A stretch of DNA of 64,000 nucleotides from a phage. Below are positions 9,124 through 54,281 of this stretch, piece after piece (the first letter of the stretch is position 1; every line of letters starts with the position of its first letter). The notes beneath the pieces were generated by a model. The model searched no databases. It saw nothing but the letters and a program-made list of their open reading frames with translations, and had not been told where the DNA came from. A program made the position numbers and the translations under genes. The stretch is taken from the NCBI GenBank assembly GCA_024975835.1, contig GCA_024975835.1_4840.1. One strand, given 5' to 3'.

Positions 9124-9633
9124 TTATTTGTCAGGGTTCACTAAAACAGGGGTGGATACCAGTTCGCCGTTCTTCACAGAATGCTGGGCTACAACAAACT
9201 GATCGACCATGCGATATACTTCAATTCCAGCAGCCAGCATGTCAATAATGCCGTCTATGATACGATATGGTCGGTCATAGAACACTTTAGCGATCTTGCC
9301 ACTGCCGATAATACGACGGGTGCACTCTGGGCATGGACTATGAGTGACAAACATCACCAGGCCACAACAGTCTTCGGTGTGCTGGGGGAGTTTGCTCAGA
9401 GCATTCTCCTCGGCGTGGATAACACCCACCGATACCAGTTGACCGTCTACTTCCTTCTCACAGACATTAGGAGCGCCAGGAGCAGTCCCGTTCCAACCGA
9501 TAGACAGGGGCTGGTCAACACGCGGGTCAACGATAACACAGCCGACCTTCAGGCGTTGTGCATAGCTGGACAGAGCGTATGCATGAGCCGAGCGCATATG
9601 CGCAAATAACATACGGGGTTTGATAGCCATCAC
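9124..9633 (-). CDS. cd: deoxycytidylate (dCMP) deaminase
   Basis: Zinc-binding deaminase motifs HAEENAL and PCPEC with typical spacing; size as T4 Cd. Confidence 0.85.
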   Translation of the reverse strand: MMAIKPRMLFAHMRSAHAYALSSYAQRLKVGCVIVDPRVDQPLSIGWNGTAPGAPNVCEKEVDGQLVSVGVIHAEENALSKLPQHTEDCCGLVMFVTHSPCPECTRRIIGSGKIAKVFYDRPYRIIDGIIDMLAAGIEVYRMVDQFVVAQHSVKNGELVSTPVLVNPDK

Positions 9634-9944
9634 ATCACCAGTTTCTTTTCAAGGAGGAAGATCATGTCGTCTTGGTCTGCACGACCAAAGATCTGACCCA
9701 TGGCGACCATCTGGTGGACTTCCCTGGCAATGATTTCTTTGCCAGGAGTAACTTCATCCAGGTCCATGATAGTGCTGACGCGGTCTACCATGCGCGGCGG
9801 GTGATTAATGTATCGCTGCAGGTACTTCTCACGAGTGGCGATCAAATTGTTCAACTCGGACAGCTCTGTCTCTTCTTCTGAAAAGCGCTTTTCCTTCGCC
9901 TGCAGTTCAGCCAGGCGCTCATACATTTCTTTTAATGGGGTCAT
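9630..9944 (-). CDS. hypothetical protein
   Basis: 104-aa ORF, 4-nt overlap with downstream gene. Confidence 0.45.
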   Translation of the reverse strand: MTPLKEMYERLAELQAKEKRFSEEETELSELNNLIATREKYLQRYINHPPRMVDRVSTIMDLDEVTPGKEIIAREVHQMVAMGQIFGRADQDDMIFLLEKKLVM

Positions 9945-10013
9945 TTCCGGTTCCTCTTAATAAACGAAGGGAAGTATATACTCCCCCTTCTTCAATAACC
10001 GCTGAATCTTTAT

Positions 10014-10343
10014 TCAGAGATAAGATTTACCGAGTTCGGTCAGGCGATAGAACGTCACCTCAGTGTTCGGCCAGTTCACGTAAGAACCGTCATGAACCAT
10101 TGAGCCAGCTGGTTCGATCAACCCCTTGGCGAGCAGGGAAGCCCCAGTGCGGGGGTTGCCTTTGACGGAGGTGAAACCACCAGCGTTCGGGCATACCTGG
10201 AACGTCCAGACGGTGTTGCCCTTGTCATTGGTCCAGGATTTGGGATGAAAGTACCATTCACCATAACGGTAATGACCTTTCTCAAAGTTCAACATTCCTA
10301 AAAGGACGCAGAGTTGATGTCCTGTGATGCGCGGCTTTTTCAT
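10014..10343 (-). CDS. hypothetical protein
   Basis: Start moved to internal Met (MKKPRIT) that overlaps the upstream stop by 4 nt; track lists 10014..10394. Confidence 0.4.
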   Translation of the reverse strand: MKKPRITGHQLCVLLGMLNFEKGHYRYGEWYFHPKSWTNDKGNTVWTFQVCPNAGGFTSVKGNPRTGASLLAKGLIEPAGSMVHDGSYVNWPNTEVTFYRLTELGKSYL

Positions 10344-10657
10344 GACAATACTCCTTTCAGAGCTAAAACGGAAAGCACACCAATAATCAACCATGTCGGG
10401 ATAATTGGCTTGCAGTTCATGTGGGTTTCTCCACCTTCGATGTTCGGGCTTCCTTGTATAAGAACGTGTTCACAGGAAGCTCTGAACGTCATTACACAGC
10501 CCATCAACACAATTGGCCTGATATAATAACCCGTTTTAGTTTGCTTCACGATACATGGAGAGGAGAAGCGCAGATATGGATCCCCTTTCCGGTAGCCTGT
10601 GATTGTGACCTTCTGCACTTCAGAAGGCACTTTTTGGCCAGGAAAATAAATTTTCAT
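10340..10657 (-). CDS. hypothetical protein with C-terminal transmembrane helix
   Basis: 105-aa ORF; hydrophobic C-terminus. Confidence 0.4.
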
Positions 10658-11214
10658 ATTTCAATCCCCAGATTGGTGTATAACAACTCAGACAGGGTTA
10701 CAGGACGCTTGAATTGTTCCCAGCTGCAGTTCAGGTATTCGCGCTCTTCACGCATTTCACCGTGAAGATGGCCATGGATATTATACACCCAGCGGTCTAA
10801 TTGATAAGGAACGTGAGTGGTCAGCACACGACCAACCGGAGTATCACGCTCATACATCGCACCAAAGGAGCTAATCCATCCCTCTTGATACAGCTGCATC
10901 AACATCTTGAATTTGTCATGGTTGCCTTGCGCCACCCTGATGATAAAGTTCGGTCGCCAGTCATCAGGGACGGGGCGGCGCTTGAACTCATCAATATTCC
11001 GCTTGGCACCCTCGCGCATCAGGCGAATGAACCCCTCAGCCCCGATGAAGCAGATGTCCCCAGCCAGTTCAAGGACGTCTCGGGACTTCAGCCCCTGAAA
11101 GATACTGTCGATAACTGCAGCATCATGTGCCTCTTGGGTATCGAACCCACGGGGCTTGAAGATCTTCTTGTGTCCGAGGTGAGTGTCGCCCAGATACTTT
11201 ACAATTCCTGCCAT
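10654..11214 (-). CDS. metallophosphoesterase (calcineurin-like phosphatase)
   Basis: GDTHLG, GNHD and GHLH motifs; start set at MAGIV (ATG overlaps upstream stop as TAATG). Confidence 0.7.
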
Positions 11215-22107: not shown

Positions 22108-23673
22108 TTACTTGTACAGACCTGTCACGTCAATAGACTTGTGCTGGCGGTTGTACTCAGCAGTGTAGTCATCCAACACCAGATATTCACAGCATCGGAT
22201 CTTGCTGGAGCCATAGTCGTTGGTAATAGACACGATGTCTTTTGGGTTCAGCTTACAGCGAACAACGCGCTGGCCAACAGAACCGAAGCACTGTTTCAGA
22301 TAGGCCAGGGAGCAAACGTGCAAACCGTATGAACACAGGTCAGAGTTGTTGTCGTTCACGAATGAGCGAGCCATCCGCACGATAGTGCCTGGGGCGTTGC
22401 TGATCGTGTTGCTGTGCTTGTCCATGTAGTTGCCGCGCACCGATTTGTAGAGGATGATGTCACCATCGTCGTCAATTTCGATGTCAGAGTACGCCATGAA
22501 CTCATAGATGCGCCCAGACTGAACCAGAGAAGCAGACGGGTTCTGGAACATTTTGTCCATAAACTTCGCCATGCGGTCCAGGTTGTGAAAGTCACCCTTC
22601 AGCATCAGCGCCAGTACACGCTTGGCGATGGATGTGCCTGTGATGTCATGGCCAGACCAGCGGACACGGTTGTCAGACACGTCTACCAGTCCAGCAGCGT
22701 ACTTCGCGATCGCTTCACGAGGGCGCATCAGCGAGTATGCCAGCTTCACGTCTTTGTCTTTGATCGCCTGTACGATGCGGTCATAGGCCGGGTGTGAAGT
22801 GGTGATCGTTTCCGGCTTGCCGTCAATCGCGATAACAACGCTGTCAGGAAGAATCAGGATCTGGTGTTCGTTCAGGAACACGTCCAGGTCTTTCGCGCCG
22901 AAGTCCTGTTTGGTTTTCTTGTTATCAGCCGCTTCTTCAACTTCTTTGATAACAACAGCGAATTCCACAGAAGACAGAGCCAGGCGCAGAGTGCGGCCGA
23001 GGATGGCATCGAAGTAACCAACACGGCGACGGGCATCCAAGGATCCACGGATAGGATAGGTTTCCCCGTCAACCACAACGCTGATTTCAACGTTGCTCGG
23101 AACTTTGTCAGCGCCTTCTGTCAGCGCCACAGAAATTTCTGCCATCTTACCGACAGCTTCAACACCGAAAGCGCGACTATCACCTTCCACAGGAGTCAGT
23201 TCGGATTTTTCAAAGAGAGCCCCTTTGAAATTGCCGTCATTGGTGAGACACAGATACTTGTTATAGTTTGGTAAATATGCCCCAACATACCATTCTGAGC
23301 CATCTTTGTCTTTGGCCGTGCCGCCCGGTTGGACCTCGAATACTTCCTGCTCTTCCGGCTTGATAGGAGAGATCACAGTTACCTTGTTTTCCTCCTCGGT
23401 AATGCGGACCAACAGAGCGCGAGCAATGGTCTTGGCGGACACACCGTACACCTTGGCCAAGAATGCATTGCTGACATTACCTGCCGCCGAATCCCTTTGG
23501 ATATTGGCGATCTGATCTGTTGTCAGGGATTTCAGCGAAGTAGGGTCAACACCAATTTCCGTGTCGGAAACACGTTGTACAGTCGAGCGGGGTATGCCCA
23601 ACAGAGTAGCAATTGCGCTCTGGCTTTTGCCTTCCTTCAAATACTTCAGGATCTTTTCGTCAATCTTGTTCAT
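22108..23673 (-). CDS. rIIB: rIIB-like protein
   Basis: Large ORF directly downstream of the rIIA-like gene, as in T4-type genomes; N-terminal HTH-like segment (KSQSAIATLLGIPRSTVQRV). Start set at MNKIDE; track lists 23760. Confidence 0.5.
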   Translation of the reverse strand: MNKIDEKILKYLKEGKSQSAIATLLGIPRSTVQRVSDTEIGVDPTSLKSLTTDQIANIQRDSAAGNVSNAFLAKVYGVSAKTIARALLVRITEEENKVTVISPIKPEEQEVFEVQPGGTAKDKDGSEWYVGAYLPNYNKYLCLTNDGNFKGALFEKSELTPVEGDSRAFGVEAVGKMAEISVALTEGADKVPSNVEISVVVDGETYPIRGSLDARRRVGYFDAILGRTLRLALSSVEFAVVIKEVEEAADNKKTKQDFGAKDLDVFLNEHQILILPDSVVIAIDGKPETITTSHPAYDRIVQAIKDKDVKLAYSLMRPREAIAKYAAGLVDVSDNRVRWSGHDITGTSIAKRVLALMLKGDFHNLDRMAKFMDKMFQNPSASLVQSGRIYEFMAYSDIEIDDDGDIILYKSVRGNYMDKHSNTISNAPGTIVRMARSFVNDNNSDLCSYGLHVCSLAYLKQCFGSVGQRVVRCKLNPKDIVSITNDYGSSKIRCCEYLVLDDYTAEYNRQHKSIDVTGLYK

Positions 23674-23704
23674 CTTGTAGTTCCCACGTTGGTTAACAGG
23701 ACTA

Positions 23705-26461
23705 TTATGCCCTGATAATGGAATTTGAAATAACGTCCAAGTAATCCGAAGATTTTTCAATCGGGTTCAGGGCGCTTGGTTTGTAATTCTCTTTCAAGAA
23801 CCGGACAACACGATGACGCTCGATGGTCAATCGGTTTTCCCGCCTTGCTTTCAATGACGGAGTCCTCGATATATCAAACGGTGTAAATCCATGAAACCGC
23901 AACACATCCGAAGCGCATTCAAAGATCTGTAGCATCTGATGTTCTGAACGGAAGATCTTTTCGTCACGCTCGTTGGCGTACAAATTCACGTTAAGAGAAT
24001 GTATTGTGTCCTGGAAATGGCTAAATCGACGCTTGTCATTGATTGAAACCGGGGCTTTCGCCAGGCTTTGGTAATGACGTACAGTCTGCTCATCCAAGAT
24101 ATCGTCCACAACTTTCATTAACTTGTTGTAACGGCTGACCAATTTGCCATAACGATCGTCTTCAACATCACCAAACGCCTGATGAACCAGATGGCTCCCG
24201 TATTTTAATCGATCCGCCCCAAGGCGCATGCGGCGGTATGATTCCAGTATGCGCTTGGCGCTATCGCGCTCCATCATAGGCTTCACGTTTTCCAACATGA
24301 TCTTCAGGATTTCATCGATCGGTATGAAGACCTCTGGGAACTTCTTCATCATTGGCACGGATTTACGACGAGCCAAGAAGATTCGGTTGTGAACGTTCAA
24401 CATATCGCTGATGTACACTGGCTTGCCTTCATCGTCGACACTGACTGCGTGCTCATACAGAGATTTACGAATACCCCGCGCCGCCGCAGTCGTCAACGTT
24501 CTGTCCATCACCTGATGGATACACGCATGGCCAGACACCTCAATATAGACGATGCGCTCGCCCTTGTTGATGATATCTGAGATCTGGTCGCCCGTTAGTT
24601 CTTCATACTGGTATATGTCGAAGTTGCTGCGCGTGAACGGAAACAGGCCAGGGTCTTTGGTGACCGGGGGCGTGACATACGACAGTTCGTTCATGAACTT
24701 GACTTCAGCAGGCTCCAACACCGCACTCAGCCAATCGACGAACTTGTCGGCGAAGCACAGATAATCAACCGTCGTTTCTTCTTTACCAATCCAAGTTTCA
24801 AAGAAATCATAGAGAGCCTGAGAATTCTTGAACGCAGGGTTGTCCTTAGATTGGTTGCGCTTGGTGACATAGGATGTGTTCGGCTTGGCCACGATGACTA
24901 TCGTCCCTGTATCTTTCAGCTGCTTGATCTTCAGGTTACGAGCACGAACACTATCTTCGATCACCACAGTAACATGCTGGCCGCGATCAATCCACTTCTG
25001 GATTTCTGAAATGGTCAAATTACTGGACTCACCCCAGTCATAGAAGATCTCCATAGAGAACGGCGATGACAGCTCATTGAACGGCGCGGTATGGTCATAA
25101 TCGCGATCTATCTCAACAGGCAGCGGGTAACGGTAATATGAATCATGAAAGCGCTTGTCTGCCGGGTATTCCTTTTCAACCATCTTGCGGAACCCACTGC
25201 CGAACATTTCACTCAGTTTTACCTTCTCCATATACAGGGCAAGAGGACCACGCTTACACGCCAGCTCCAGGTCACGCATCTTTTCTGTCAAGATTGCATT
25301 GGCGGTGCCCTTAAACTCCTCAGAGAGCGTCTCACGCGTGAATTCGTCATATGAAAGGTCTTCACGCGACGGTGGTACGTTCAGCGAGCCAAGTTCGAAG
25401 AACGTATAGGACGATGGAAACTTGCTCATGATGGAAGCAGTGTCCGGGTCCAGCTGGTCCAGGTCAATCGGGTACGACACGCCACCCATTACAGCATAAT
25501 GGGTGTTCCCCTGACCTTTCGGCTGGATGTACGTGTTGTTGACCTTGAAATCATAACTGATATCTTCCCAGCTGAAGCGGTATGAAGCGTTCTCAACAAT
25601 TGGACGTTGTTCAGGGCGCATAACACGACCAAGGCGAACCAGTTCATCAGAGAATGCGGAGAAGCGAGCGTTCTTCACCGGGATCTTCACCGTCATGCCG
25701 TTGAACTCATCGGTGTCTTCCGGCTTAGGATCACGGGTTTCAAGATCTTTGGTGATCAGGTCAACAGTCGGGATGCGCTTGGCATTCAGGTACATCAGGA
25801 AGCGATGGAGTTTACCGTCCATGCGGCTTTCCACAGTGAACGAATCCGATACCGCAAATGGTGATTTGGAGCCAAGACCGAATGCCCCAATCTGATCATC
25901 ATCTTCTTCCTTCGTACTGTGGAAGAGAGTGGTATACAACCCAGGCGTACGAATGATTTCACCATCTTCGCGACGGAACACTAGACCACCATTATAGAAC
26001 GCAGGCACGCCGATGACCTCAGCTGAGTCAGGGATCTCATCTTCCTTGACCACCATGTTGCCTTCCAGCAACACTTCATCTTCCTGCGCTGGGATAGGCT
26101 CGCCAATGATCTTCTCAAGTGGCAGACCGATGCCGTAATCACGGATTTCCAGCCATGGCTCAAAGTCATCAGGTAGATGCACAACAACCTGCTTACCCTT
26201 CGGTGCAAGGTATTTGCTATGGCGGGCAGGAGGCGGAGTGAGAGGCGCGTAGTGGGACGCCATCACACGGTGCATACGATCACGCATGCCATGGGAGTCG
26301 ATGGCGTTACAGACGGTTTCGCGCAGGGCTGCAGCCTCTTTGTAACGATACAATGATGAGAACAGAGTCTCAAACATCTTATCGTTCATCTTCACGTTGA
26401 ACGCCTGCCCCTGAATGGAAGACGACGAGCGGATAAAGTGCTCGGACTTGCGCATTTTCAT
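23705..26461 (-). CDS. rIIA: rIIA-like protein with N-terminal GHKL-type ATPase domain
   Basis: 918 aa; N-terminal LYRYKEAAALRETVCNAIDSHG resembles the ATP-lid of GHKL ATPases found in T4 rIIA. Confidence 0.65.
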   Translation of the reverse strand: MKMRKSEHFIRSSSSIQGQAFNVKMNDKMFETLFSSLYRYKEAAALRETVCNAIDSHGMRDRMHRVMASHYAPLTPPPARHSKYLAPKGKQVVVHLPDDFEPWLEIRDYGIGLPLEKIIGEPIPAQEDEVLLEGNMVVKEDEIPDSAEVIGVPAFYNGGLVFRREDGEIIRTPGLYTTLFHSTKEEDDDQIGAFGLGSKSPFAVSDSFTVESRMDGKLHRFLMYLNAKRIPTVDLITKDLETRDPKPEDTDEFNGMTVKIPVKNARFSAFSDELVRLGRVMRPEQRPIVENASYRFSWEDISYDFKVNNTYIQPKGQGNTHYAVMGGVSYPIDLDQLDPDTASIMSKFPSSYTFFELGSLNVPPSREDLSYDEFTRETLSEEFKGTANAILTEKMRDLELACKRGPLALYMEKVKLSEMFGSGFRKMVEKEYPADKRFHDSYYRYPLPVEIDRDYDHTAPFNELSSPFSMEIFYDWGESSNLTISEIQKWIDRGQHVTVVIEDSVRARNLKIKQLKDTGTIVIVAKPNTSYVTKRNQSKDNPAFKNSQALYDFFETWIGKEETTVDYLCFADKFVDWLSAVLEPAEVKFMNELSYVTPPVTKDPGLFPFTRSNFDIYQYEELTGDQISDIINKGERIVYIEVSGHACIHQVMDRTLTTAAARGIRKSLYEHAVSVDDEGKPVYISDMLNVHNRIFLARRKSVPMMKKFPEVFIPIDEILKIMLENVKPMMERDSAKRILESYRRMRLGADRLKYGSHLVHQAFGDVEDDRYGKLVSRYNKLMKVVDDILDEQTVRHYQSLAKAPVSINDKRRFSHFQDTIHSLNVNLYANERDEKIFRSEHQMLQIFECASDVLRFHGFTPFDISRTPSLKARRENRLTIERHRVVRFLKENYKPSALNPIEKSSDYLDVISNSIIRA

Positions 26462-27056: not shown

Positions 27057-27257
27057 TCACTTACGTTTGCGCTTGTTCTTTCCATGAGTCTTCGCCTTCT
27101 TCTTGCGGGTTACAGACGGGCGACCATGTCCCGGTTCGCCGGGTGTGCCACCCTGAGTGTAACGACGCCCCCACATGTCATCACCACGATGCGCGGCGAC
27201 GATTTCCATTTCTGACAGCGCTAGCATAGCAGCAACAGCCGCAGATGATTTCTTCAT
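27057..27257 (-). CDS. hypothetical small basic protein
   Basis: 66 aa with Lys/Arg-rich C-terminus; could be spurious. Confidence 0.3.
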   Translation of the reverse strand: MKKSSAAVAAMLALSEMEIVAAHRGDDMWGRRYTQGGTPGEPGHGRPSVTRKKKAKTHGKNKRKRK

Positions 27258-27709
27258 TTCGTTTCCCCCTTGGCAGCATAGGACAGTGCCTTGACGATCA
27301 TTACAGCCAGATCGATCGGCGAGTAGGTGCTGTTCAGATCTTCTCGAACACTCTGCTCTATTTCTTCATCAGACTGGACTACAGGACAGTTCTTTCCCTG
27401 GCGACGGCGTTCTGTGTTGATCATATCACGCAGGAGCAGATCGGTGAAGGAGTACTCATCAAAGTTTTCCAGATAATTCTGAATCCCAGTGGATACAGGG
27501 GTTGGCTCCGGTTCCTGTTCTCCAGGATCTTTCAGGGCAGCAACAGTGGCATCAATATCCCACAGAGGGTTCAGCAGTAACAGAAGATTAACTGTTTCTC
27601 CTGACTCTGAAGTCGGGTTATTTCCCAGCACCTTGTACAGATTCTTCAGGGTGCTGTCGAAGGTCAGAACGGTCTGCGCCAGTTCTTCATAAGTTGGTTT
27701 GGTAGTCAT
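27254..27709 (-). CDS. hypothetical protein
   Basis: Start moved to MTTKP (GGAG upstream); the track's first Met lies inside the terminator hairpin. Confidence 0.45.
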   Translation of the reverse strand: MTTKPTYEELAQTVLTFDSTLKNLYKVLGNNPTSESGETVNLLLLLNPLWDIDATVAALKDPGEQEPEPTPVSTGIQNYLENFDEYSFTDLLLRDMINTERRRQGKNCPVVQSDEEIEQSVREDLNSTYSPIDLAVMIVKALSYAAKGETK

Positions 27710-27772
27710 CAGCGTTTGCTCCGGCGTTTGTTCTTCATCTTTCTTGGCTTGTCTGTCATGTTCCTGTCCACG

Positions 27773-27812
27773 AAAAAGGGGATAGAGCAATAATACCCTA
27801 TCCCCTTTTATT
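27773..27812 (-). terminator. intrinsic terminator hairpin
   Basis: GGGGATAG / CTATCCCC stem with 12-nt loop, A-run and T-run flanks. Confidence 0.6.
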
Positions 27813-27821: not shown

Positions 27822-28235
27822 TTAGTCTTCAGATTCTACTTTGCCGCCTCGTAGATCCCGAACTGGTTTACCGTCCGGTGCCATCACATAAATGGTGTTG
27901 ATTGTCTCAAACCAAGACAGCTGGTCAACACCCTCGGTGTATGGGGTCACCGGAACAGAAGTCTTGACCTCTTTGCCTTTCGTGTTCGGATGTTCAACCA
28001 CATCCAAGAACGCACATTTCCCGCTCGGAAGGATCACACCATCAGTAAACAGCACGATCTTCTTGCGAGGGTTGCTGGCCTCACCCAGGCACACCACCAG
28101 ATGATGGATCATCTCGGGGCGGTCAATCAACATGTCGTCTTTGATAATCCCTTGCTTGATAGCAGAGATCACCACCTCATCCAACAGAGCCTGCTGTTGG
28201 TCCAGTGTCAGGGATTCAGTGAGTTTCACGCTCAT
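27822..28235 (-). CDS. hypothetical protein
   Basis: 137-aa ORF. Confidence 0.45.
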   Translation of the reverse strand: MSVKLTESLTLDQQQALLDEVVISAIKQGIIKDDMLIDRPEMIHHLVVCLGEASNPRKKIVLFTDGVILPSGKCAFLDVVEHPNTKGKEVKTSVPVTPYTEGVDQLSWFETINTIYVMAPDGKPVRDLRGGKVESED

Positions 28236-28239: not shown

Positions 28240-28809
28240 TCAGCCTTTGAAGTTAATCGGTTTCTGAATACCAGCGTCGAACGCGGCCTGGGTACGGGTA
28301 TCGCTCACCACCTGGCAGGTCTTGTCAAGGTCGATACGCGGGTAGCCGAACATGCCAGCAATCAACGAACCAGGGAACTGAGCCAGCTTGGTTTCGTATA
28401 TTGTGCAGATATCCAGCTTCTTGGTCTGGCTGATGCGGAATTCATCACGCCCAGAACTGATCACCACCTGGATCTCTTTGTACAGGCTGGAATCGAACTG
28501 AATATTCTGCTCCTGGATCCACTGCATGACGGCCTTGGAACCATCAGCACCATAACGCCCTTCGAACGTGCCTTTGATCACTTCCTTCAAGCCGTCTTTA
28601 TACATGTCAGGAATCTGCGCCGTCTCCTGAACTTTGAGCGTGTAGTTGCTCAGGTAGTTCTCGGAGTCTTTGTTGAACTTCTTGACCTGCTGCTCAGTGC
28701 GGTTGAAGTCGTTGAAGTAGCTGATGACTGTACCGATGCCGAGAATCACTACACCCAGAAAAGCCAAACCAACTATCCAACCTGTTGCAATACCCTTAGA
28801 TTGAGACAT
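28240..28809 (-). CDS. membrane-anchored protein (LemA-like topology, tentative)
   Basis: 189 aa; single N-terminal TM helix followed by a soluble domain. Confidence 0.5.
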   Translation of the reverse strand: MSQSKGIATGWIVGLAFLGVVILGIGTVISYFNDFNRTEQQVKKFNKDSENYLSNYTLKVQETAQIPDMYKDGLKEVIKGTFEGRYGADGSKAVMQWIQEQNIQFDSSLYKEIQVVISSGRDEFRISQTKKLDICTIYETKLAQFPGSLIAGMFGYPRIDLDKTCQVVSDTRTQAAFDAGIQKPINFKG

Positions 28810-28827
28810 TCTTACTTCCTCTTTTGA

Positions 28828-29943
28828 TTAAAAATTAAACGGATAACGACGACGGCCACCATTGTACTCCATTCGCTGTAATATGAAAATTGCGGTGAAT
28901 GGTAAGCAGCCCAGCAGAACAACAACCACAACTTCCCAGGTCTTGAGTTCCCGCCACTTCAGGTACTCCATTTCCTTCATCTCAACGCGGTTGTAGCCTT
29001 TGGTGATGTTAGCGACAACATCAGCCATGACACCGACACCCATGTCGTGGCCTGTGAGAGCCATGCCATTGCGAGAATGGAGTTCACGGTTGTGCATACC
29101 ATCAGCGAACGAAGTGCTCTTACCCCAGTTGATCTTCAGGTCTTTGTTGATGTCGGTCACGACGATAACGTCGTTCTTTTTACCACCATCCCAAGCATAG
29201 ACCAAGCCCTGGAAGTATTCAACTGGCTGCCCGGAAGTCACAACCCAGACGATGTTCACCTGCTTGGCTGCGCCCAGCTTCTTCAGGGCATCATTCAGAT
29301 AATCGTTCCAGTATGTGGTCGGTAACGCCAGGCCGGACACGTTCAGCACACGAGTGACGCGATAGTAGTCATAGACTTCGGGATACTTCGGAATCTTGTC
29401 TTTGAAGCGCTCAGCAAACTGCTGGTCTGAACGAGAGAACAGAGAGTCTTTGTTGCCCAGCACATAATTCATATATGAATGTTCACGTGCCGCAGGTTCC
29501 CCGATTTTAACTTGTGTCCAACGCGGAGGCTCTGTAGTACCCTGACGATCAATACGGTCAATGCTCAGATCGCCGACGGTTGTTAATACATCCCAATCAA
29601 CGTCATAAGAGTGCTCATAGCATGTGCTGCAATGACGCGTTTGTGTACAAGATCGGTTATTTCCTGAACCTGTACAAGATGTTGTGTAATAGCACATACA
29701 TTCATATGAATGCTCACAGCTCACCTTATTGCGCTCCTTGCCAGTGACGTATCCGTTCAGGATCTCAACGTCCCCTGAACTGCCGAGGGAGAACGCAGCA
29801 TAAGCCCCGACCTGAATCAGACAGGACAGCACCACCACAATCGCCGTCGCTATCAGGGTCTCTTTCGGCTCATGGGTCTTGCGGTGGTAGGTCACAAACA
29901 GGATAGCCAGTACCAATGGCACACCAAACAGGAGGTAGATCAT
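28828..29943 (-). CDS. Cys-rich integral membrane protein
   Basis: 371 aa; N- and C-terminal TM helices; 9-Cys cluster (CEHSYECMCYYTTSCTG...CTQTRHCSTC). Confidence 0.5.
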   Translation of the reverse strand: MIYLLFGVPLVLAILFVTYHRKTHEPKETLIATAIVVVLSCLIQVGAYAAFSLGSSGDVEILNGYVTGKERNKVSCEHSYECMCYYTTSCTGSGNNRSCTQTRHCSTCYEHSYDVDWDVLTTVGDLSIDRIDRQGTTEPPRWTQVKIGEPAAREHSYMNYVLGNKDSLFSRSDQQFAERFKDKIPKYPEVYDYYRVTRVLNVSGLALPTTYWNDYLNDALKKLGAAKQVNIVWVVTSGQPVEYFQGLVYAWDGGKKNDVIVVTDINKDLKINWGKSTSFADGMHNRELHSRNGMALTGHDMGVGVMADVVANITKGYNRVEMKEMEYLKWRELKTWEVVVVVLLGCLPFTAIFILQRMEYNGGRRRYPFNF

Positions 29944-30326
29944 TTGGATTCACCGACGAGCTGTGCCTTGGTCATCCCAAGGAGTTGATCTTTATGCTCA
30001 GGATTGGCACCGTTCTTTAACAACAAATCCCAACGCTCTTCATGGTACTGTGGAGTTATTGCATCGTCAAAAGAAACATGGTGGCGATGCATAATTGTTG
30101 CAACGGTGTGAAGAACGATTGCTGTTGCTCTTTTTAAAGCACGTGTATCCGTGATGTGGTCTTCGTATTCGATTCCCAACAAATCGAGTTCTTTTCGGAT
30201 ATATGCTATAGACAAATTACCTTCAGAATGCAACGCGACGATAGTGGCTTTCTTAGGGTGGAGTGTACCATCCGTTTCTTTCATGAACAGATCGTACAGG
30301 TACTGTTTGTATTCGGACTGTGTCAT
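29940..30326 (-). CDS. hypothetical protein
   Basis: 128-aa ORF. Confidence 0.45.
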   Translation of the reverse strand: MTQSEYKQYLYDLFMKETDGTLHPKKATIVALHSEGNLSIAYIRKELDLLGIEYEDHITDTRALKRATAIVLHTVATIMHRHHVSFDDAITPQYHEERWDLLLKNGANPEHKDQLLGMTKAQLVGESK

Positions 30327-30751: not shown

Positions 30752-30797
30752 CAAAAAGAAAGGGGAACGGGCTAATATTAACCCATTCCCCTTTATT
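30752..30797 (-). terminator. intrinsic terminator hairpin
   Basis: GGGGAACGGG...CCCATTCCCC stem-loop flanked by A-rich and T-rich runs. Confidence 0.55.
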
Positions 30798-30819: not shown

Positions 30820-30988
30820 ATTACTTTTTCTTCAGCTCTTCCAGCTTGGCTTCGATTTGTTCCAGGATGTCCTTACCCTTCTGAACAATCACTTCACCGT
30901 CTTGCGCGTGTTTACGGAAGACCAGAGCACCAGCTACGAAACCGACAACAACGCCAGGAAGCGCGTACACCAACAGATCTTGTAACAT
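30820..30988 (-). CDS. hypothetical small membrane protein (56 aa, not in ORF track)
   Basis: MLQDLLVYALPGVVVGFVAGALVF...; below the 60-aa track cut-off; ends just before the terminator. Confidence 0.3.
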
Positions 30989-31024: not shown

Positions 31025-32263
31025 TCAGCGTTTCAAGAGTGTCATGAGGTTGACGCTATGTTTGCGCGGCTGCTTGTCCTCAACCTTGCGCACAGGCATC
31101 TTCAGGTTCGTACATACCTCGGATGGTTCCCAGCGCGTACCCTTTTGCAGGTGCCAGATGTGCAGAGGAACGCCAGTCTCAAAGAACACAGGCATCTTCC
31201 ACTTCTGGACGCCTGGAACGTGCCCTGCAGGAGCCTTTTCACACAACAGGGTATCTGGCAGCCAGAGCGAACGGGCTTCCCAGAGCGCTGCGCAGGAGTA
31301 TTCAGGCCAGACGCGTTCCATGTAGTCTATCTCATCCCAGGTACGCTCTGCGTCCCACCCGATGTAACGGGTATTCTTCAGTCGGAAGAACTTCTTCAGC
31401 CAGCATGCACCGGAGGTTTCAAAGTTCAGACGGTTGATGAACGTCAGGTGCCCGAACTCAGCCACACAATCCTGGAACGCCTGCTCAAGGTCGGCCTCAA
31501 GGATGTCACACTCTTCATCCGTGATAGGACAACCGTTGATCTTTTTCTTCCCGTGTTTAGTCACCCAATCGTCACGGTTGGACAAGAACGCCGCGCCATT
31601 ACGGTTGGACTCGCTTCCATCACGATCACGCAGCATGAAGCCAGGGACGTCAATGGTGTATTCGTTCCCGAAGACCATGTTCAGGGCTTCCAGGAAGTTC
31701 CAGGCGCTCAGGCGACCGAAGTATTTCCAGGACATCGCCGTGTCCCACAGCTGGGTGAATTGTTCTGTCTTATCGATGCACACCAACATCCCACGGAAAG
31801 CGTCATATTGAGTACGGCCAGCCAGCCAGTCAATATAGGACTGAACACACGGAATCATCTTGGACTTGCGGTAGCGACAGTCGGTATCGAATCGCATGCG
31901 TTCAAAGTTCAGGTTATACCAATCAGAGAAGCGCTGCATCTCTTCCTTAGACTGAGGCGGCACAGGGAACTCACTGTAGATTGTCCACGGTCCGACAGCG
32001 TTATAGCAACAACCCCACAGGAATGCCATCCAGATCTTGCGCTCGACTTTCTGTTCGAGGCTGATGCCTTCAGTGACTTCGATCGCATAGTCCATCAGAC
32101 GCATCTGCTGGTTGTGCTCTTCTGTGTAGGACAGCGCCTCCACCCAAGCCTTGAGCAGGTACATGCGATTCTCAGGCTTGCGATAATCAACAGCCAGGTC
32201 AATCGGGTACTTCCATTCAGCCGGAGGCGTATAGCCCGTCGGCATTTTAGATAAATGATGCAT
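31025..32263 (-). CDS. large hypothetical protein, candidate DNA base-modification enzyme
   Basis: 412 aa, Trp/Cys-rich; sits in the kinase-phosphatase-polymerase neighbourhood. Function assigned by context only. Confidence 0.55.
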   Translation of the reverse strand: MHHLSKMPTGYTPPAEWKYPIDLAVDYRKPENRMYLLKAWVEALSYTEEHNQQMRLMDYAIEVTEGISLEQKVERKIWMAFLWGCCYNAVGPWTIYSEFPVPPQSKEEMQRFSDWYNLNFERMRFDTDCRYRKSKMIPCVQSYIDWLAGRTQYDAFRGMLVCIDKTEQFTQLWDTAMSWKYFGRLSAWNFLEALNMVFGNEYTIDVPGFMLRDRDGSESNRNGAAFLSNRDDWVTKHGKKKINGCPITDEECDILEADLEQAFQDCVAEFGHLTFINRLNFETSGACWLKKFFRLKNTRYIGWDAERTWDEIDYMERVWPEYSCAALWEARSLWLPDTLLCEKAPAGHVPGVQKWKMPVFFETGVPLHIWHLQKGTRWEPSEVCTNLKMPVRKVEDKQPRKHSVNLMTLLKR

Positions 32264-35211: not shown

Positions 35212-38211
35212 TCAACCTTTCTTCTTTTGCATCATGGCAAGAAGGTTCACACGGCGCTTGTGTGACCAGCCGACCACGTCGAGGATAGACTGAATCGGAT
35301 CAATGAAGGACTTCTCAAAGGCCGCCTGATAATCCACCCATTTGCCCAGACCAAGCTCCTCAGGGAAGAACTCAGGATATGCGAAGTAATTCTGGCCGAA
35401 TGGGTTGCCTGGCTTCAACAACACCATCTGTACCTTATCACCCGACTCGATCATCGGCAGGCCGAGATCTTCGTTCTTCTCAACCAGACGGTTGTAACCC
35501 ACACAAGCCTTTGCAGCAAAATGAGCACCAGAGATGAACGATCCGTCAGCAGCCACACACTTCTCTATGTCGGACACGCCTGACGCCTTGGCGATATCGT
35601 CTACAGAGAGTTTCATGTACTCCTCTTTGTACTGGGAGATGAGCGCCTGTACTTCCTCTTCGGTGCCGAGTAGGATCTTCTCATAGCACTTGACAAGGCG
35701 CTCACGACACCATTCCGGCGTGGTGGACTTGCGGGCTTCCAGACCTTTGAACTTGATCTTCGGCTTCTCGTACTTGATACCCTCACTGTCGTACACGGCC
35801 ATGGCATACATCTTCTTGGCTCGCCAGACAGCGGCTGACGCAATGACCTCACGCTCCCACACCATGCGCTGTTCAAATCCGTTCATGGTGTTACATAGAA
35901 GCTGTGCCCACTCATTGGTCTTCGGCTGGTAGTTGTCTTTGATCCATTGGTCGATATTATCAACCATAGCATGATGGTCAGTAACATCAGGCCACAACTG
36001 CTTGACAAGACGCTCAATGCAGATGTAGTTGGAGTCGGTATCCCCTGCGATGACGAAGTCCTGACCTGTTGTACCACACAGCTTGTTCAGATAGTCATCA
36101 GTGTAACGCTTGTTCCACTTGTTGATCAGCTGACCGGATGTGGTGATGGCTTCGGCAATGTTGAGGTTGAAGTACTCTTTGAACCAGACGTTTGAGATCG
36201 CGCCATAACCTGCGTTCATCAAGATCTTCAGACCTTGCTGAAGGGTATCTTGAGCAACGCCCAGATCTTCCCACTTCTTCATCACTTCGGTCAGTGCATC
36301 AAGATCAACGTTCTTGTGCTCTTCATACCACTCTGGGTCATAGTAGCGAGACTTCATGGCAGACTCAAGATGGAAGTCGCCCTTCGACATCTCTTTACAC
36401 CAGCCAGCCCACTGCTCATACTTCAGACCCTTGGCCTTCTCTACTTTACGGTCGCTGTAGATACCACGCATGATTTCAGACAGGAACGACATCTTCTCGT
36501 TGCTGAAGAACTGAACGTTCGGCGTGAAGGACACGTTGTAGAGGCGCAGGGTTTCAAAGTGGAACTCACCCAGGGCAACCAACTCATCAACAACCTGCAG
36601 GCGTTCGTCAACCGCACGCAACAGCTTGTCGTGAAGGGCTTTCATCAACCGACGTTTGTGCATCGGCGTTGCCATGTTATTCATCTGAGCAGCCAGCTCT
36701 TCACACATAGCCTCAATAATCTCGCGGCGCTGGTGTTTGTCGCCAACGATAGTCTCTGGACCGAGGTTGTACTGCTGAATGATGTGAGGATACAGGGAGT
36801 TCAAATCTTCCGAGAAGACCCAGAAGTAGATTCCTGGTGTCACATCCATGACGTATGCACCCTCAAAGTCGGTCGGACCATCGTATACACGCTGGATCTT
36901 AGGCACTATCCCCTTCTCGTACAGGCGATAGTAGCACATGGCCAGCCACGGAGCCACAGTGCCCAGACCGTCTTCATAGTTGGACTTGGTGCGGTAGGCC
37001 AGGACGAACATCAGCTGGAGCAGGCGCAGCTTCTGTTCAAGTCGCCATACCAGCTTAACGTCTTTGATACCATATCGGGTGTGTTTGCAGTAGTCGTTGA
37101 AGTACAGATCAAAGAGCGACTTGCTCTCACTGTAGTCCATCTTCTTCTCACCCAGCTCACAATACGCAATCCAGTCAAGAGAGTAGCGTTCACGGGTGGT
37201 GTACGTGTGTTTCTTGTAGATCTGCATATAATCGAGCATAGGGCAACCCACGAACTGATACGTCGTGATATCGCCCTTCTTATCGCGAATGATACGCTTC
37301 TTAATGATACCCCAAGGACTGAGGCGCGACGTTTCAGCCTCTCCCAGAACCTGATTCATGCGCTCAACAAGATAAGGGCTATCAAACGTCTCAATGTTCC
37401 AGCCAGTCCATCCGTCGAACTGACGCTCCGACCAGAAGTCCAGGAAAGAGCGCAGCAGGTCTTGTTCGGTGGTGAACTCCTGATAAACAACCTCCAGGCC
37501 GCCGATCTCTTTGTCTTCTGCGTCATAGGTGAATTTGTTACGATCTTTGGCGCACGGCATACCCCAGACCATGAACTTGTTGGTCGCCATATCCTGAAGC
37601 TGGATCAGGGTAATGGGGAACGCCGCATTCATGTCTTGGGTGATCTTGCCGTTGCTGTCAATGATAGGGAACTGATCAGTGACGTTGTTGCTGATGAAAG
37701 AACCAGGGAAGTGCTCACGGACAAAATCATGGTTGGCCAGCACTTGTTTATGGAAGCGGCGAATGCGCGCCTCATTCCCTTTGAACGTCTGCTGCTCAAT
37801 GGTTGGGTGAGGGAATGGACCTTTGGTCATCTTTCCGTCTTTCCACCCGGCGGAGAACACTTCGATATCGAGGTTAGCAATATGGATGTTGGAATAATCC
37901 GGCTCAATCTTTCCAGGAAAGCTATGGGCGATGAACTGGTATGCATAATCGGTCTGCCCGTAAATGGCAGCACCCTGGACTTCCTTGTACTCTTCAAGAT
38001 AGTTGTCAGCGTCACGCATGGAAGGGAACTGCTTGGCTACCAGGGGTTCATTGAGAAGGCCAACCTTTTCAACATTTGAATAGTCAGCCGTGGGTAAATA
38101 GAGAGTGGGTTCGAATTTCTTTTTCAACAGACGGCGATTACCCATGTCATCTGCAATTCGAATCAACAGGTCATTGCCCCTGCGGGCAACGTTCGTATAG
38201 AAAACGGTCAT
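35212..38211 (-). CDS. family-B DNA polymerase (T4 gp43-like)
   Basis: N-terminal FPSMRDA, Exo I NLDIEV, WTGWNIETFDSPYL, and polymerase motif C IAGDTDS; 999 aa, uninterrupted. Confidence 0.9.
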   Translation of the reverse strand: MTVFYTNVARRGNDLLIRIADDMGNRRLLKKKFEPTLYLPTADYSNVEKVGLLNEPLVAKQFPSMRDADNYLEEYKEVQGAAIYGQTDYAYQFIAHSFPGKIEPDYSNIHIANLDIEVFSAGWKDGKMTKGPFPHPTIEQQTFKGNEARIRRFHKQVLANHDFVREHFPGSFISNNVTDQFPIIDSNGKITQDMNAAFPITLIQLQDMATNKFMVWGMPCAKDRNKFTYDAEDKEIGGLEVVYQEFTTEQDLLRSFLDFWSERQFDGWTGWNIETFDSPYLVERMNQVLGEAETSRLSPWGIIKKRIIRDKKGDITTYQFVGCPMLDYMQIYKKHTYTTRERYSLDWIAYCELGEKKMDYSESKSLFDLYFNDYCKHTRYGIKDVKLVWRLEQKLRLLQLMFVLAYRTKSNYEDGLGTVAPWLAMCYYRLYEKGIVPKIQRVYDGPTDFEGAYVMDVTPGIYFWVFSEDLNSLYPHIIQQYNLGPETIVGDKHQRREIIEAMCEELAAQMNNMATPMHKRRLMKALHDKLLRAVDERLQVVDELVALGEFHFETLRLYNVSFTPNVQFFSNEKMSFLSEIMRGIYSDRKVEKAKGLKYEQWAGWCKEMSKGDFHLESAMKSRYYDPEWYEEHKNVDLDALTEVMKKWEDLGVAQDTLQQGLKILMNAGYGAISNVWFKEYFNLNIAEAITTSGQLINKWNKRYTDDYLNKLCGTTGQDFVIAGDTDSNYICIERLVKQLWPDVTDHHAMVDNIDQWIKDNYQPKTNEWAQLLCNTMNGFEQRMVWEREVIASAAVWRAKKMYAMAVYDSEGIKYEKPKIKFKGLEARKSTTPEWCRERLVKCYEKILLGTEEEVQALISQYKEEYMKLSVDDIAKASGVSDIEKCVAADGSFISGAHFAAKACVGYNRLVEKNEDLGLPMIESGDKVQMVLLKPGNPFGQNYFAYPEFFPEELGLGKWVDYQAAFEKSFIDPIQSILDVVGWSHKRRVNLLAMMQKKKG

Positions 38212-42675: not shown

Positions 42676-42764
42676 TGGCGGAAGGTGAAGGATTCGAACC
42701 TTCGGGGGCTAAAAGCCCCACTCGATTAGCAATCGAGTCCCTTAAACCTCTCGGGCAACCTTCC
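42676..42764 (-). tRNA. tRNA-Ser (anticodon GCT)
   Basis: Folded by hand: 7-bp acceptor GGAAGGT/ACCTTCC, anticodon stem CTCGA/TCGAG with loop TTGCTAA, long variable arm, T-loop GGTTCGAATCC, encoded CCA. Confidence 0.8.
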
Positions 42765-42984
42765 AATTTGGACGGGCTTCGCACCCGATTGAGCATTTGA
42801 TCTACCGTAGCCCAACTCCCCGCGCTTCTCAGCGCCGATTGGTTAACTGGCGACCAGTGCCTTCTGGTTCGATCTCCTGGAACTTTACAGGCTTTGCGCC
42901 AGACCATTTCTGGAAGTTGGGGCATCGTTTCCGATGTGGAGTCACCCCATTTTATACACAGCTGGCTGCAACGCTTACTGTGTT

Positions 42985-43068
42985 TGGTGTGAGTGGATGG
43001 ATTCGAACCACCGCGCTGTTACGGGGAGATTTACAGTCTCCTGCATTCGACCGCTCTGCCACACTCAC
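42985..43068 (-). tRNA. tRNA-Tyr (anticodon GTA)
   Basis: Acceptor GTGAGTG/CACTCAC, anticodon loop CTGTAAA, long variable arm, T-loop TTCGAAT, encoded CCA. Confidence 0.8.
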
Positions 43069-43325
43069 ATTTGGTCTGCCGCTGCGTGCTGGGCCACGCT
43101 CGAGGACATCGGCCATCCTTCCTCAGCTAATCCACGCAGCGGTAGATTTGTATCAGAGTGTCCGGTGTAGCAACCCGTGAGGTGCGCACTACTGTAGCCT
43201 CTACACTCTGAATTTGGTGGGTGTTACTATCGTCGTCTTCGGATTCCGTTCGGCTATTGGACAGAGGCTTGGAGCTTGTCGGTCGCGTACTTTATGCCTA
43301 TTCACTTTCGTTCACACCCATTGTC

Positions 43326-43401
43326 TGGCGACGATGGCAGGACTTGAACCTGCGACATATGGATTAACAGTCCACCGTTCTACCGACTGAACTACATCGT
43401 C
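43326..43401 (-). tRNA. tRNA-Asn (anticodon GTT)
   Basis: 76 nt; acceptor GACGATG/CATCGTC, D-stem GTTC/GAAC, anticodon loop CTGTTAA, T-arm GCAGGTTCAAGTCCTGC, encoded CCA. Confidence 0.85.
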
Positions 43402-43562
43402 TTGCAAATCACTATACCATATAAAGTTTATTGAACAAACATTTATTTTACAACAAACTGTATTGGCGGGGTCTGAGGCTTTTCACCTCACCTGCTGGGT
43501 TTGGCCGCCCAGCCGTTCTCTATGAGGATTCACTGTCCGGACAGCTATCCATTAAACTATCG

Positions 43563-43639
43563 CCCCTCAATATGGTGATCCTGATTGGGTTTGAACCAAT
43601 GACCAATGAATTATGAGTTCACTGCTCTAACCGACTGAG
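43563..43639 (-). tRNA. tRNA-Met (anticodon CAT; Met or Ile2 not distinguishable)
   Basis: 77 nt; acceptor GGTCCTG/CAGGATC, D-arm GCTCAGTCGGTTAGAGC, anticodon loop CTCATAA, T-loop GGTTCAAACCC, encoded CCA. Confidence 0.8.
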
Positions 43640-45033
43640 CTACAGGACCAAATTATTGTGTGACCAACCAAGGACTGTCAACCCTTTATCCCGTTTGTGC
43701 ATGATCAGTTCATACAGGCCTCTTTGTGCTGCCTCACGGCATGCGCTTCTGTTGGTCATTGGCTTACACTGTGGCCTCACAACAGGCGTTTATTTTTCCA
43801 GGGCTTTCCACTTACAAGTCTTAACCAGACCGGGATACGGGCTTGTAAGATCGGGTTGGACACAACTTTGAGGACACTGACGACGTATACGAGTCACCCA
43901 TAACAGATATTCGGATGCCAGTGTCCTCAAAGTTGCAACCAATGTCGCAACTCGCAGCTTCCATACAGAAGCAACTTGTCCTCTAACGCTCGGACCAAAC
44001 GAGGCTGGCTGGTTGATTCAGAGCCGCTGGTTGCTCCAGCAAGCATGGGTTGATAGCCCGGCAACATAGAATCACCCAAAGATGAAGAACATTCATGACT
44101 CACATCACACCACGAATGGCCTGAAAGAGAATCGAACTCTTTAAATGCTCTTCATTTTGTGAACTTGAGAATACTACGCCTGTCTCGGGTTTCCCCTTAG
44201 TTCGGCCTCCCAGTCCTCGCCGCGCCGGGTAGCTAACCCTGATGGCTCGTCTGCTACTGAGTTCTTCTTGGTGCCCACCAGTGTCCGGAATGTGTAGGCA
44301 TCGCAATCTGCAAGGCATGGTCTATTTCACCCAATGCTCTCTCAAGTTCACAAATCGAAGTGCCCTGACTCAACAGTATGGCCCAATATGCTGTTATCGT
44401 CCACCGGATTGGCCGCCCAATTTGTAGATCAACCTTTGGGTTTAAGATAAATTGTCAAGGCACTTCGATTTGTGTGCCCTTCACCTGCCAGGGATCAGGG
44501 CTGATGGCAAGACTTCGCTCACATCTTTCAAGATACTCGTGAGAATATCCTCAAAGATGTGGAGCCGTTTTAGGGAGTCGAACCCAAATGCTTGGCCAGC
44601 GCTGACCTTACATCCCATCTGACTTAGGCAACCCACCTCTGCTTACTCAGGAGCTTATCCCCTTTGGACAGTCAGATATAACGGCATTGTCGACGGGAGC
44701 TTATTAATCACACCCTCCCGTCTATTTTAGTGCGCCGAATTTGGTGATGAGGAATCGGAAGACCTCACTGACTTATAGGCTGTTACGCCGCCATCAGAAC
44801 TTCGGAATCATTAGCAGTTATTTGCTTGGTCAGTTTCTAAAAACCCGCAAAGTCACTCACAACGAAAACGAAAACCTGTTTGAGCACAAGACGCCATGTC
44901 CTGGGTTCACATCGAAGTGTTTGTCTAATGCCCAAACAGCTTTTCGTTCAGTGGGTTAACTATACTTTGTAACCCGTTATTGACAAAACCTTAAATTAAG
45001 TTGCGGTGTACTCAAGACCACCGCACTATTAAT

Positions 45034-49552: not shown

Positions 49553-50743
49553 ATGGCCGATTTTCTGAGTCAATACACAGGTCAGCAGATTGATGCAATC
49601 CTTTCTTCTGTTGACGATAAAATAAGCAAGACTGATGTTGTCAACGATTTCGCTGTTGATGATCCGTTGTTCCCTCCTTCAGCTCATTTGACATACGAGC
49701 TGAAGCGTTCTGTGGATAATATCTACGACACACTGGAAAACAAAGTGATCCGCACCGACGGTGGTGAACAAACGATCAACGGGAGAAAGACTTTTGTTGC
49801 GTTGTTGACCGCCAACGGCGGCCTGACTGTTCCGGCTGGAAAGAAACTTTCTATCGCGGATGAGCCTACGATAGCGACAGATGGTGTTAACCTGAGCATG
49901 TTGAGAAAGCATGGTGTCAGTGAAGACACTACCCCACCTGGTTCTGGTTTGGCTGGGGAGTTGTTGGCATCCGGATATTACAAATTCAATTTGGATTTCA
50001 CCAAATTGTCTGCGTATATCGGATCAACGTTGCCGACTTCAATCCCAGTACAAACAGATTCTGGAGCGCGTTATTGGACAATGACTGCATTTTTTGATGC
50101 GTTGTTTGCAGATAACCGATTTAATGGATATGTGACAACGACAGCGTATGATGCAGATATGCTGAGTTTAGAGTCCCAGATTAATAACATCAACACATCG
50201 TTGAACGGGAAAGTCAACACATCGACTTACAACACTAAGATGGCGTCATTGGATTTGAGTATCTCCAATATCAATACGTCTCTGGGTAATAAAGTCGAGG
50301 TCAGCACGTACAACACGAAGATGACATCTCTGGATAACAGCATCAGTTCTCTTTCCAGTGATAAAGTTAATGTATCAACGTATAATGCCAAGATGACCTC
50401 TGTCGACAATAGTTTAGGGAACGCCGTTTATCGTACCAAAACGAATTTGTCTTCTTACACGGTTTCGGCTTCTGGGACGACGGCTCTTCCAGATTTTGAT
50501 TTGGTGAACCTTTGTCAAATACTGGTGACCGCGCAATGGGGAACAGGTAACGTTGTTGATACATATCGAGTAACCATAACTCGCGACGGAACTATCAAAT
50601 CGGAGTTGTTGGTTCAGAAAAGTACGAGCGGTACAGTGACGTTCACAGGTTCTGTGGTGGGTGGTAAATTGAGAATTTCCGTTGTTAATGCGAACACGAC
50701 GACTGCGTGCTACGTTGACTACAATCTAGTCGCTTCTTTCTAA
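49553..50743 (+). CDS. tail-fibre-like protein with tandem 23-aa repeats
   Basis: 396 aa; repeats of the type N(I/T)SL(N/G)xKVxxSTYNxKM(A/T)SLDxS in the central region. Confidence 0.5.
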   Translation: MADFLSQYTGQQIDAILSSVDDKISKTDVVNDFAVDDPLFPPSAHLTYELKRSVDNIYDTLENKVIRTDGGEQTINGRKTFVALLTANGGLTVPAGKKLSIADEPTIATDGVNLSMLRKHGVSEDTTPPGSGLAGELLASGYYKFNLDFTKLSAYIGSTLPTSIPVQTDSGARYWTMTAFFDALFADNRFNGYVTTTAYDADMLSLESQINNINTSLNGKVNTSTYNTKMASLDLSISNINTSLGNKVEVSTYNTKMTSLDNSISSLSSDKVNVSTYNAKMTSVDNSLGNAVYRTKTNLSSYTVSASGTTALPDFDLVNLCQILVTAQWGTGNVVDTYRVTITRDGTIKSELLVQKSTSGTVTFTGSVVGGKLRISVVNANTTTACYVDYNLVASF

Positions 50744-50751
50744 AGTGAAAA

Positions 50752-50758
50752 CTAAATA
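50752..50758 (+). promoter_or_regulatory. late-promoter-like CTAAATA motif
   Basis: ACTAAATACCCC 38 nt upstream of the ATG at 50796. Confidence 0.4.
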
Positions 50759-54275: not shown

Positions 54276-54281
54276 CAAAAA

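Follow-up and report, generated by a model that had tools for sequence, protein, structure and literature searches.

A two-gene cassette of large phages that very probably derives from a bacterial LemA-TPM membrane module

LemA and TPM are named protein families, very common in bacteria, on whose function there is no agreement. TPM proteins, for which no biochemical activity has been agreed either, have been described as factors on the lumenal or extracytoplasmic side that assist or assemble membrane complexes (in photosystem II, PSII, its repair and maturation) and as partners in PspA envelope-stress operons (PMC11237479; bioRxiv 10.1101/2024.10.28.620569). An sppA mutant under membrane stress shows induction of both lemA and a TPM gene (PMC13236525). 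Here we describe two adjacent genes, encoding membrane proteins of 371 and 189 amino acids (aa), in a phage DNA stretch of 64,000 nucleotides (nt) (GenBank assembly GCA_024975835.1, contig GCA_024975835.1_4840.1; the whole stretch is called the window below). Hundreds of large virulent phages carry the pair as a fixed cassette of two genes, and profile and structure comparisons make it very probable that the two genes are a very divergent, phage-adapted version of the bacterial LemA-TPM module.

An earlier note on this DNA had proposed adjacent open reading frames (ORFs) of 189 and 371 aa. Their positions and lengths proved exact; both are on the minus strand and have strong PHROG matches, as expected of real genes:

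28828-29943, minus strand: gene for the TPM-like protein with three transmembrane (TM) helices, 371 aa, PHROG 2087 (from the ORF list; phrog_2087, E=9.5e-164)
28240-28809, minus strand: gene for the LemA-like single-pass protein, 189 aa, PHROG 1383 (from the ORF list; phrog_1383, E=7.6e-86)
28817-28823, minus strand: Shine-Dalgarno sequence AAGAGGA, 7 nt before the ATG of the LemA-like gene (read from the sequence)

The Shine-Dalgarno sequence lies in the 18-nt spacer which separates the 371-aa gene from the downstream 189-aa gene. The PHROG scan returned only phrog_1383, phrog_2087 and phrog_23737, while scans of the pair with Pfam, NCBIfam and PADLOC gave nothing above threshold.

The smaller protein was compared with known families by means of profiles. 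Its phage family yielded 98 homologues, and a profile of 41 members had a single significant match in the PDB, to Thermotoga LemA 2ETD (E=1.7e-3); the match pairs residues 30-158 with 10-155, almost the entire domain, and includes the C-terminal signature Y-x7-FP-x7-FG(F/Y). Alignment of the family with 16 canonical LemA proteins by hhalign gave a probability of 96.5% and E=8.2e-10 over 141 columns, and eight of the 41 relatives have sub-threshold matches to Pfam LemA (PF04011; best E=1.6e-3). The AlphaFold2 model is all-helical, with a predicted local distance difference test score (pLDDT) of 82.6. The architecture is that of the LemA family, namely one N-terminal TM helix followed by a helical domain of about 150 residues, and the protein is single-pass as the earlier note had stated, with one hydrophobic segment at residues ~9-31. 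Its two parts are:

28717-28785, minus strand: single TM helix, residues 9-31, predicted N-in/C-out (hydropathy peak 4-35; charge bias)
28243-28716, minus strand: predicted periplasmic helical domain, residues 32-189, with C135/C165 and the signature Y138-x7-FP-x7-FGYP

The family of the larger protein has more than 523 homologues and is matched by 2,123 representatives of 50%-identity clusters from metagenomes (E≤1e-3); the protein is found in at least 487 sequenced phage records. It is divided as follows:

29779-29943, minus strand: residues 1-55, TM1, a short basic cytoplasmic loop (YHRKTHEPKE) and TM2 (hydropathy peaks 1-21 and 27-55)
29344-29778, minus strand: residues 56-200, phage-specific β-rich domain, predicted to be periplasmic
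29611-29718, minus strand: residues 76-111, Cys cluster (co-loss patterns in 209 sequences; hairpin register)
28948-29343, minus strand: residues 201-332, TPM-fold domain with the motif W251-x-G-G-K-K-N-D-V
28828-28947, minus strand: residues 333-371 and stop codon, TM3 and an Arg-rich cytoplasmic tail (GGRRRYPFNF) (hydropathy peak 333-358)

There are three hydrophobic segments, at residues ~3-19, ~30-53 and ~340-360, and in the AlphaFold2 model, calculated from 39 sequences (pLDDT 88.4), the first two form a hairpin of helices 2-20 and 26-56. TM helices are thus present at both ends, as the earlier note had it, but number three (an N-terminal hairpin and a C-terminal helix) rather than two. 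In the predicted model the domain which follows the β-rich region has the TPM fold, an α/β/α sandwich with a four-stranded central sheet and four flanking helices, and Foldseek matched the model to the TPM protein LMTP1 with a probability of 0.98. At the sequence level, six of 39 relatives have sub-threshold matches to Pfam TPM (PF04536; best E=1.8e-4, residues ~209-266), scoring 15-16 bits against a cut-off of 22.1. The segment W251-D-G-G-K-K-N-D-V-I-V-V aligns with W-G-I-G-Q-K-x-K-N-N-G-V-L-L-L of bacterial TPM partners, and within it W251, G253, K255, K256, N257 and D258 are each at least 93% conserved. A profile of the family had no match in the PDB. Other candidates were rejected: matches to DUF948, LeoBC, PRK06030 and ssl2009 were weak and confined to TM or coiled segments, and phmmer searches of both proteins against the PDB gave noise only (TcdA, E=0.74).

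The two bacterial families are themselves neighbours. A search with the 2ETD sequence found LemA directly followed by a TPM protein in all three bacterial loci inspected (Thermotoga, Neobacillus and Thermincola); the TPM partners there consist of a signal peptide, the TPM domain, a TM helix and a Gly-rich tail, and one of the pairs adjoins genes for NfeD and flotillin. DUF2207, another common neighbour of LemA, was considered and rejected, being matched by no relative. The earlier note had seen no counterpart that it could name; these adjacent LemA and TPM genes provide one, of which the phage pair is very probably a remote homologue.

The order TPM then LemA, on the same strand, is kept in 83 of 84 phage and metagenome loci, the sole exception stopping at a contig edge, and in all ten further loci (ICP1 and nine GTDB contigs); the 93 of 94 loci with this order come from a set that spans 42 lineages (55% identity). 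A co-conserved third gene was sought, and no neighbour was common to more than three of the 42 lineages. The carriers include Ackermannviridae; the Aeromonas T4-like phages Aeh1 and phiAS5; T5-like Vibrio and Pectobacterium phages; jumbo phages of the 121Q/RaK2/GAP32/CBB and Ea35-70 types; Vibrio phage ICP1; Delftia phage ΦW-14; and PaBG, Lu11, and Sinorhizobium and Acinetobacter phages. T4 and T5 themselves appear to lack the cassette, judging by organism counts of the carriers. One metagenome contig (Ga0181608_113487, 1012-2673) has a single ORF of 553 aa in which TPM and LemA are fused in frame, with a topology that fits; seen just once, it may be genuine or may have arisen in assembly. Among GTDB species genomes there are only nine matches, all of them with a LemA-like partner. 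In cultured bacteria the phage-type pair was seen in Achromobacter anxifer LMG 26857 (on a 487-kb contig) and Variovorax sp. WDL1. The Achromobacter copy adjoins genes for RecA, a YqaJ-like recombinase and an MscS-like channel, and could belong to a resident large phage, a plasmid or the chromosome.

This distribution bears on superinfection exclusion, one of the two roles that the earlier note had suggested by analogy with T4. A pair facing the periplasm might stop secondary phages from penetrating the cell wall or delivering their genome, in the manner of T4 Imm and Sp: both proteins are predicted to be in the inner membrane with periplasmic domains, their genes share an early/middle-type region with those for replication and rII, and a possible binding site for an incoming component would be the highly conserved β/Cys domain. 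Exclusion proteins, however, are typically lineage-specific, whereas myoviruses, T5-like siphoviruses and jumbo phages of many hosts share the cassette at 30-45% identity, and these phages differ widely in the machinery by which they inject DNA and lyse the cell. Moreover, homologous pairs are ordinary chromosomal genes in bacteria, and the PHROG, Pfam and PADLOC scans of the pair gave no match to Imm, Sp or other exclusion families, nor to RI, RIII or holins. The T4 analogy therefore lacks specific support, and we regard exclusion as unlikely.

Charge statistics were used to orient the proteins. Over 121 members of the larger family, the loop between TM1 and TM2 has a mean net charge of +0.6 and the C-terminal tail +1.5 (with a mean of 3.2 Lys plus Arg in the tail), while the regions flanking the large domain carry a net negative charge; over 99 LemA-like sequences, the N-terminal tail has a net charge of +1.3 and the segment after the TM helix −0.4. 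These positive-inside statistics place the globular parts of both proteins in the periplasm. Covariation of Cys residues gives further support: of 180 distinct LemA-like sequences, 101 have both Cys135 and Cys165, 78 have neither and one has only one of the two, and this all-or-none pattern suggests a disulfide in the LemA-like protein. The prediction for the globular parts of both proteins is therefore a periplasmic location, like that of the bacterial TPM partners, and for the larger protein the positive-inside bias and disulfide covariation together predict the extracytoplasmic, membrane-anchored arrangement that is characteristic of TPM proteins.

Database labels give a different picture. 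Records of the pair are mostly annotated as hypothetical, or misleadingly as virion structural protein, and one names the small protein LemA. The RefSeq/PHROG 1383 label of the 189-aa protein would make these proteins components of the virion, and it recurs in Det7, Ag3, phi 3 and other records; its origin is untraced, though, and one record calls a homologue a major capsid protein. The classical TM anchors and periplasmic signatures of both proteins, their homology to membrane proteins of cells and the position of their genes among replication and early-type genes, not in the structural module, all make a structural role extremely improbable.

The β-rich domain, residues 56-200, is the best conserved part of the larger protein, with a mean top-residue frequency of 0.62 compared with 0.46 for the TPM part. 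In the model it has very long strands, and Foldseek and sequence searches gave no significant structural or sequence match to it. As the earlier note had observed, the protein has nine Cys residues with a dense cluster: seven are at positions 76, 82, 84, 90, 99, 105 and 108, and the other two (C41 and C353) are in TM helices. In 209 sequences, C84 and C105 are lost together in 21 and C90 and C99 in 15, while C82 and C108 are lost along with C84/C105 in three ICP1-type sequences. The position numbers of each pair add up to 189-190, which fits an antiparallel hairpin made by strands 80-91 and 98-108 of the model. From the co-loss and the hairpin register we infer three nested disulfides (C82-C108, C84-C105 and C90-C99), which would staple the β-hairpin.

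The remaining residue of the cluster, C76, is invariant and has no covarying partner. At the base of the same hairpin are H78 and H111, each about 95% conserved, and it is a reasonable inference that C76, H78 and H111 form a candidate metal or catalytic site. The RaK2-like jumbo phages are the only group that has lost both His residues, and have an even number of Cys. The earlier note had suggested a metal-binding or disulfide-rich periplasmic domain; at the level of prediction, charge bias and Cys covariation bear this out for a periplasmic, disulfide-rich region with a possible metal site.

Such a site raises the question of enzymatic activity. Weak phosphatase or ATPase/ADPase activity has been reported for the TPM proteins TLP18.3 and BA41, and the phage TPM domain, or the Cys76-His78-His111 site, might catalyse a reaction in the envelope or periplasm, with the LemA-like protein as anchor or regulator. 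The invariant polar residues are concentrated in the β domain (D58, K69, C76, H78, H111, D114, R141, N159 and D192), C76 is the sole Cys of the cluster left unpaired, and metal binding and hydrolase activity have been reported for TPM proteins (PMC11237479; bioRxiv 10.1101/2024.10.28.620569). On the other hand, no enzyme family is matched in fold or sequence, both His residues are replaced in the RaK2-like phages, and the enzymatic role of TPM domains is itself disputed (bioRxiv 10.1101/2024.10.28.620569). An enzyme is in our view an improbable explanation.

The source phage is a member of the Ackermannviridae (Aglimvirinae-like) and not a T4-type phage (Straboviridae); the closest DNA match of the window is Escherichia phage vB_EcoM-RPN242 (Aglimvirinae), at 93.8%. 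The other features of the window are:

22108-23760: rIIB, downstream of the pair
23705-26461: rIIA, downstream of the pair
27254-27790, minus strand: flanking ORF, conserved in Ackermannviridae (DUF7181, phrog_4168)
27822-28235, minus strand: flanking ORF, conserved in Ackermannviridae (phrog_4236)
29940-30326, minus strand: flanking ORF, conserved in Ackermannviridae (phrog_5047)
30759-30794, minus strand: terminator-like hairpin, 16-bp stem then a T run, just downstream of the 55-aa ORF
30821-30988, minus strand: 55-aa ORF, small single-TM protein (MLQDLLVYALPGVVVGFVAGALVF...)
35212-38211, minus strand: DNA polymerase gene, a single 999-aa ORF upstream of the pair
50766-54275, 54312-56696, 57025-59103 and 59163-61241, plus strand: four tailspike ORFs (PHROG tail spike families)

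The ATG of the 371-aa gene overlaps the stop codon of the upstream 128-aa ORF (ATGA), and the ORF downstream of the pair begins 4 nt beyond the LemA-like gene; with the 18-nt spacer, these distances show that the pair lies in a tightly packed block on the minus strand. The gene block that holds the pair probably has a transcript boundary about 0.8 kb upstream of it, at the hairpin 30759-30794. A promoter scan found no more sites than in shuffled sequence. The three flanking ORFs (phrog_4168, phrog_4236 and phrog_5047) are not co-conserved with the pair outside Ackermannviridae.

The pair is about 1.8 kb from rIIA, so that the earlier note was right to place it near rIIA and rIIB; the link is not conserved outside Ackermannviridae. 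The second T4-based suggestion, control of lysis timing by an antiholin-like or holin-associated regulator beside rIIA/rIIB, draws on this proximity and on the fact that T4 RI is likewise a membrane-tethered periplasmic protein, and the TM region of one relative matches a model of the LydA holin (E=0.007). That match is single, sub-threshold and on a hydrophobic segment, however; besides the lack of a conserved rII link in other phages, no lysis gene is co-conserved with the pair, and the PHROG scan gave no homology to RI, RIII or holins. We consider lysis control quite unlikely.

Upstream of the pair, an ORF of 412 aa (31025-32263, minus strand) has a strong match to Pfam ADDT (amino acid:DNA transferase; E=4.5e-60), and in the nearest relative a P-loop nucleotide kinase and an aGPT pyrophosphorylase are annotated nearby; the pair thus has genes for thymidine hypermodification a short way upstream. 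At the place equivalent to the DNA polymerase gene, RPN242 has a 542-aa coding sequence for DNA polymerase (9220-10848) with a SegD-type homing endonuclease nearby, and some relatives may have a split or interrupted polymerase gene. Four tRNA genes lie at 42676-43649 on the minus strand (Ser-GCT, Tyr-GTA, Asn-GTT and Met-CAT). Within 50001-62000 the G+C content drops from ~0.50 to 0.43-0.45 across the four consecutive large tailspike genes, three of which have a common N-terminal module (phrog_7992 positions ~327-545); the block looks like the exchangeable cluster typical of Ackermannviridae.

Several points weigh against a LemA-TPM module with a role like that of its cellular relatives. The Pfam scan of the 371-aa protein from the window gave no TPM match at all, and the hhalign match of its family to the three bacterial TPM partners is weak (11%, E=2.7e-3); the 189-aa protein misses the Pfam LemA gathering score, with 13.7 compared to 26.2 bits. 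The gene order is inverted relative to the bacterial pairs, TPM preceding LemA in the phages, and for the most conserved domain, the β/Cys domain, no bacterial counterpart was found, which together imply that the phage module may act differently from the cellular one. No paper or experiment on a LemA-TPM pair in any phage was found in the literature. Any physiological role is moreover an extrapolation, given that the function of bacterial LemA-TPM pairs is not established; for the same reason, homology to a characterised housekeeping membrane family, which the earlier note had named as a finding that would contradict its suggestion, applies here only in so far as LemA and TPM are named families (PMC11237479; bioRxiv 10.1101/2024.10.28.620569).

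With these points in mind, we go beyond homology, fold, strict pairing and periplasmic signatures to a complex, its target and its physiological role, and infer the following course of events for a LemA-TPM module. Both genes would be translated from one transcript, the 18-nt spacer carrying a Shine-Dalgarno sequence, and both proteins would be inserted in the host inner membrane, exposing their globular parts to the periplasm. At the periplasmic face of this membrane the 371- and 189-aa proteins would assemble as a heteromeric complex, which we consider likely. During infection the complex would bind or stabilise a conserved component of the host envelope or inner membrane, like other TPM proteins, and in this way the membrane would be kept competent (energised and intact) until lysis. 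The phage-specific β/Cys domain, with its candidate Cys-His-His site, would be the part that recognises the target or acts catalytically. That large virulent phages from many families, infecting many hosts, carry the cassette speaks for a conserved host target; this range of hosts, the independence from other phage genes and the cellular descent fit a role in membrane upkeep, and fit a phage-specific exclusion or lysis device less well. We put forward a physiological role in keeping the host membrane functional only tentatively, and hold the explanation as a whole, from LemA-TPM module through complex to host-membrane role, as our favoured one with its chances evenly balanced.

A more speculative proposal, which we think unlikely, is that the cassette is a widespread phage device for taking over the envelope. 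Here the disulfide-stapled β domain with its Cys-His-His site would act on a conserved periplasmic or inner-membrane target of the host, and the TPM and LemA parts, borrowed from a membrane-homeostasis module of the host itself, would anchor it in place. Should this prove true, the β domain would be a new periplasmic effector domain, and the action of LemA-TPM modules in bacteria would become accessible to experiment for the first time.

Once recognised as a LemA-TPM pair, these proteins can be named correctly and have a predicted topology, disulfides that can be tested and a candidate site for activity or metal binding, in phages that include therapy-relevant and model phages (Kuttervirus/CBA120-like phages, ICP1, RaK2/121Q jumbo phages and Erwinia jumbo phages). 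The phage version is compact and self-contained and can be deleted in a lytic phage or expressed alone in the host, making it a simple system for finding the targets of such modules, and it could show how large phages manage the host envelope in long infections.

Among known systems, the T4 proteins Imm, Sp, RI and RIII would resemble the cassette by functional analogy, as the earlier note suggested, being small phage proteins of the inner membrane or periplasm which are expressed before lysis; they differ in being confined to T4 relatives, whereas the cassette spans many families. A second group consists of TLP18.3, Psb32 and LMTP1, which act in PSII repair or maturation, and Bacillus subtilis YdjH, from the PspA operon. 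These have the same TPM fold and membrane anchoring, on the extracytoplasmic or lumenal side, and some have disulfides and metal sites; unlike the phage protein they have no LemA partner, none comes from a phage, and their clients (PSII and the PspA system) are unrelated to anything identified at the phage locus. The closest system is the bacterial LemA-TPM pair (Thermotoga LemA 2ETD; COG1704/COG1512-type). The phage proteins have diverged from it, their similarity to bacterial LemA and TPM falling below Pfam thresholds: the TPM protein has a TM hairpin in place of the signal peptide, an extra disulfide-stapled β domain of ~145 residues before the TPM domain, and a short Arg-rich tail in place of the Gly-rich one, while the LemA-like protein has lost the canonical RRxDLIPNLV motif and gained the motif GRYGADGSKAVMQWIQEQN. 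What is common to both is the adjacency of the two families in co-directional genes; in LemA, one N-terminal TM helix, a helical domain and the C-terminal signature Y-x7-FP-x7-FGF; and in the TPM protein, a TPM domain outside the cytoplasm, then a TM anchor and a cytoplasmic tail.

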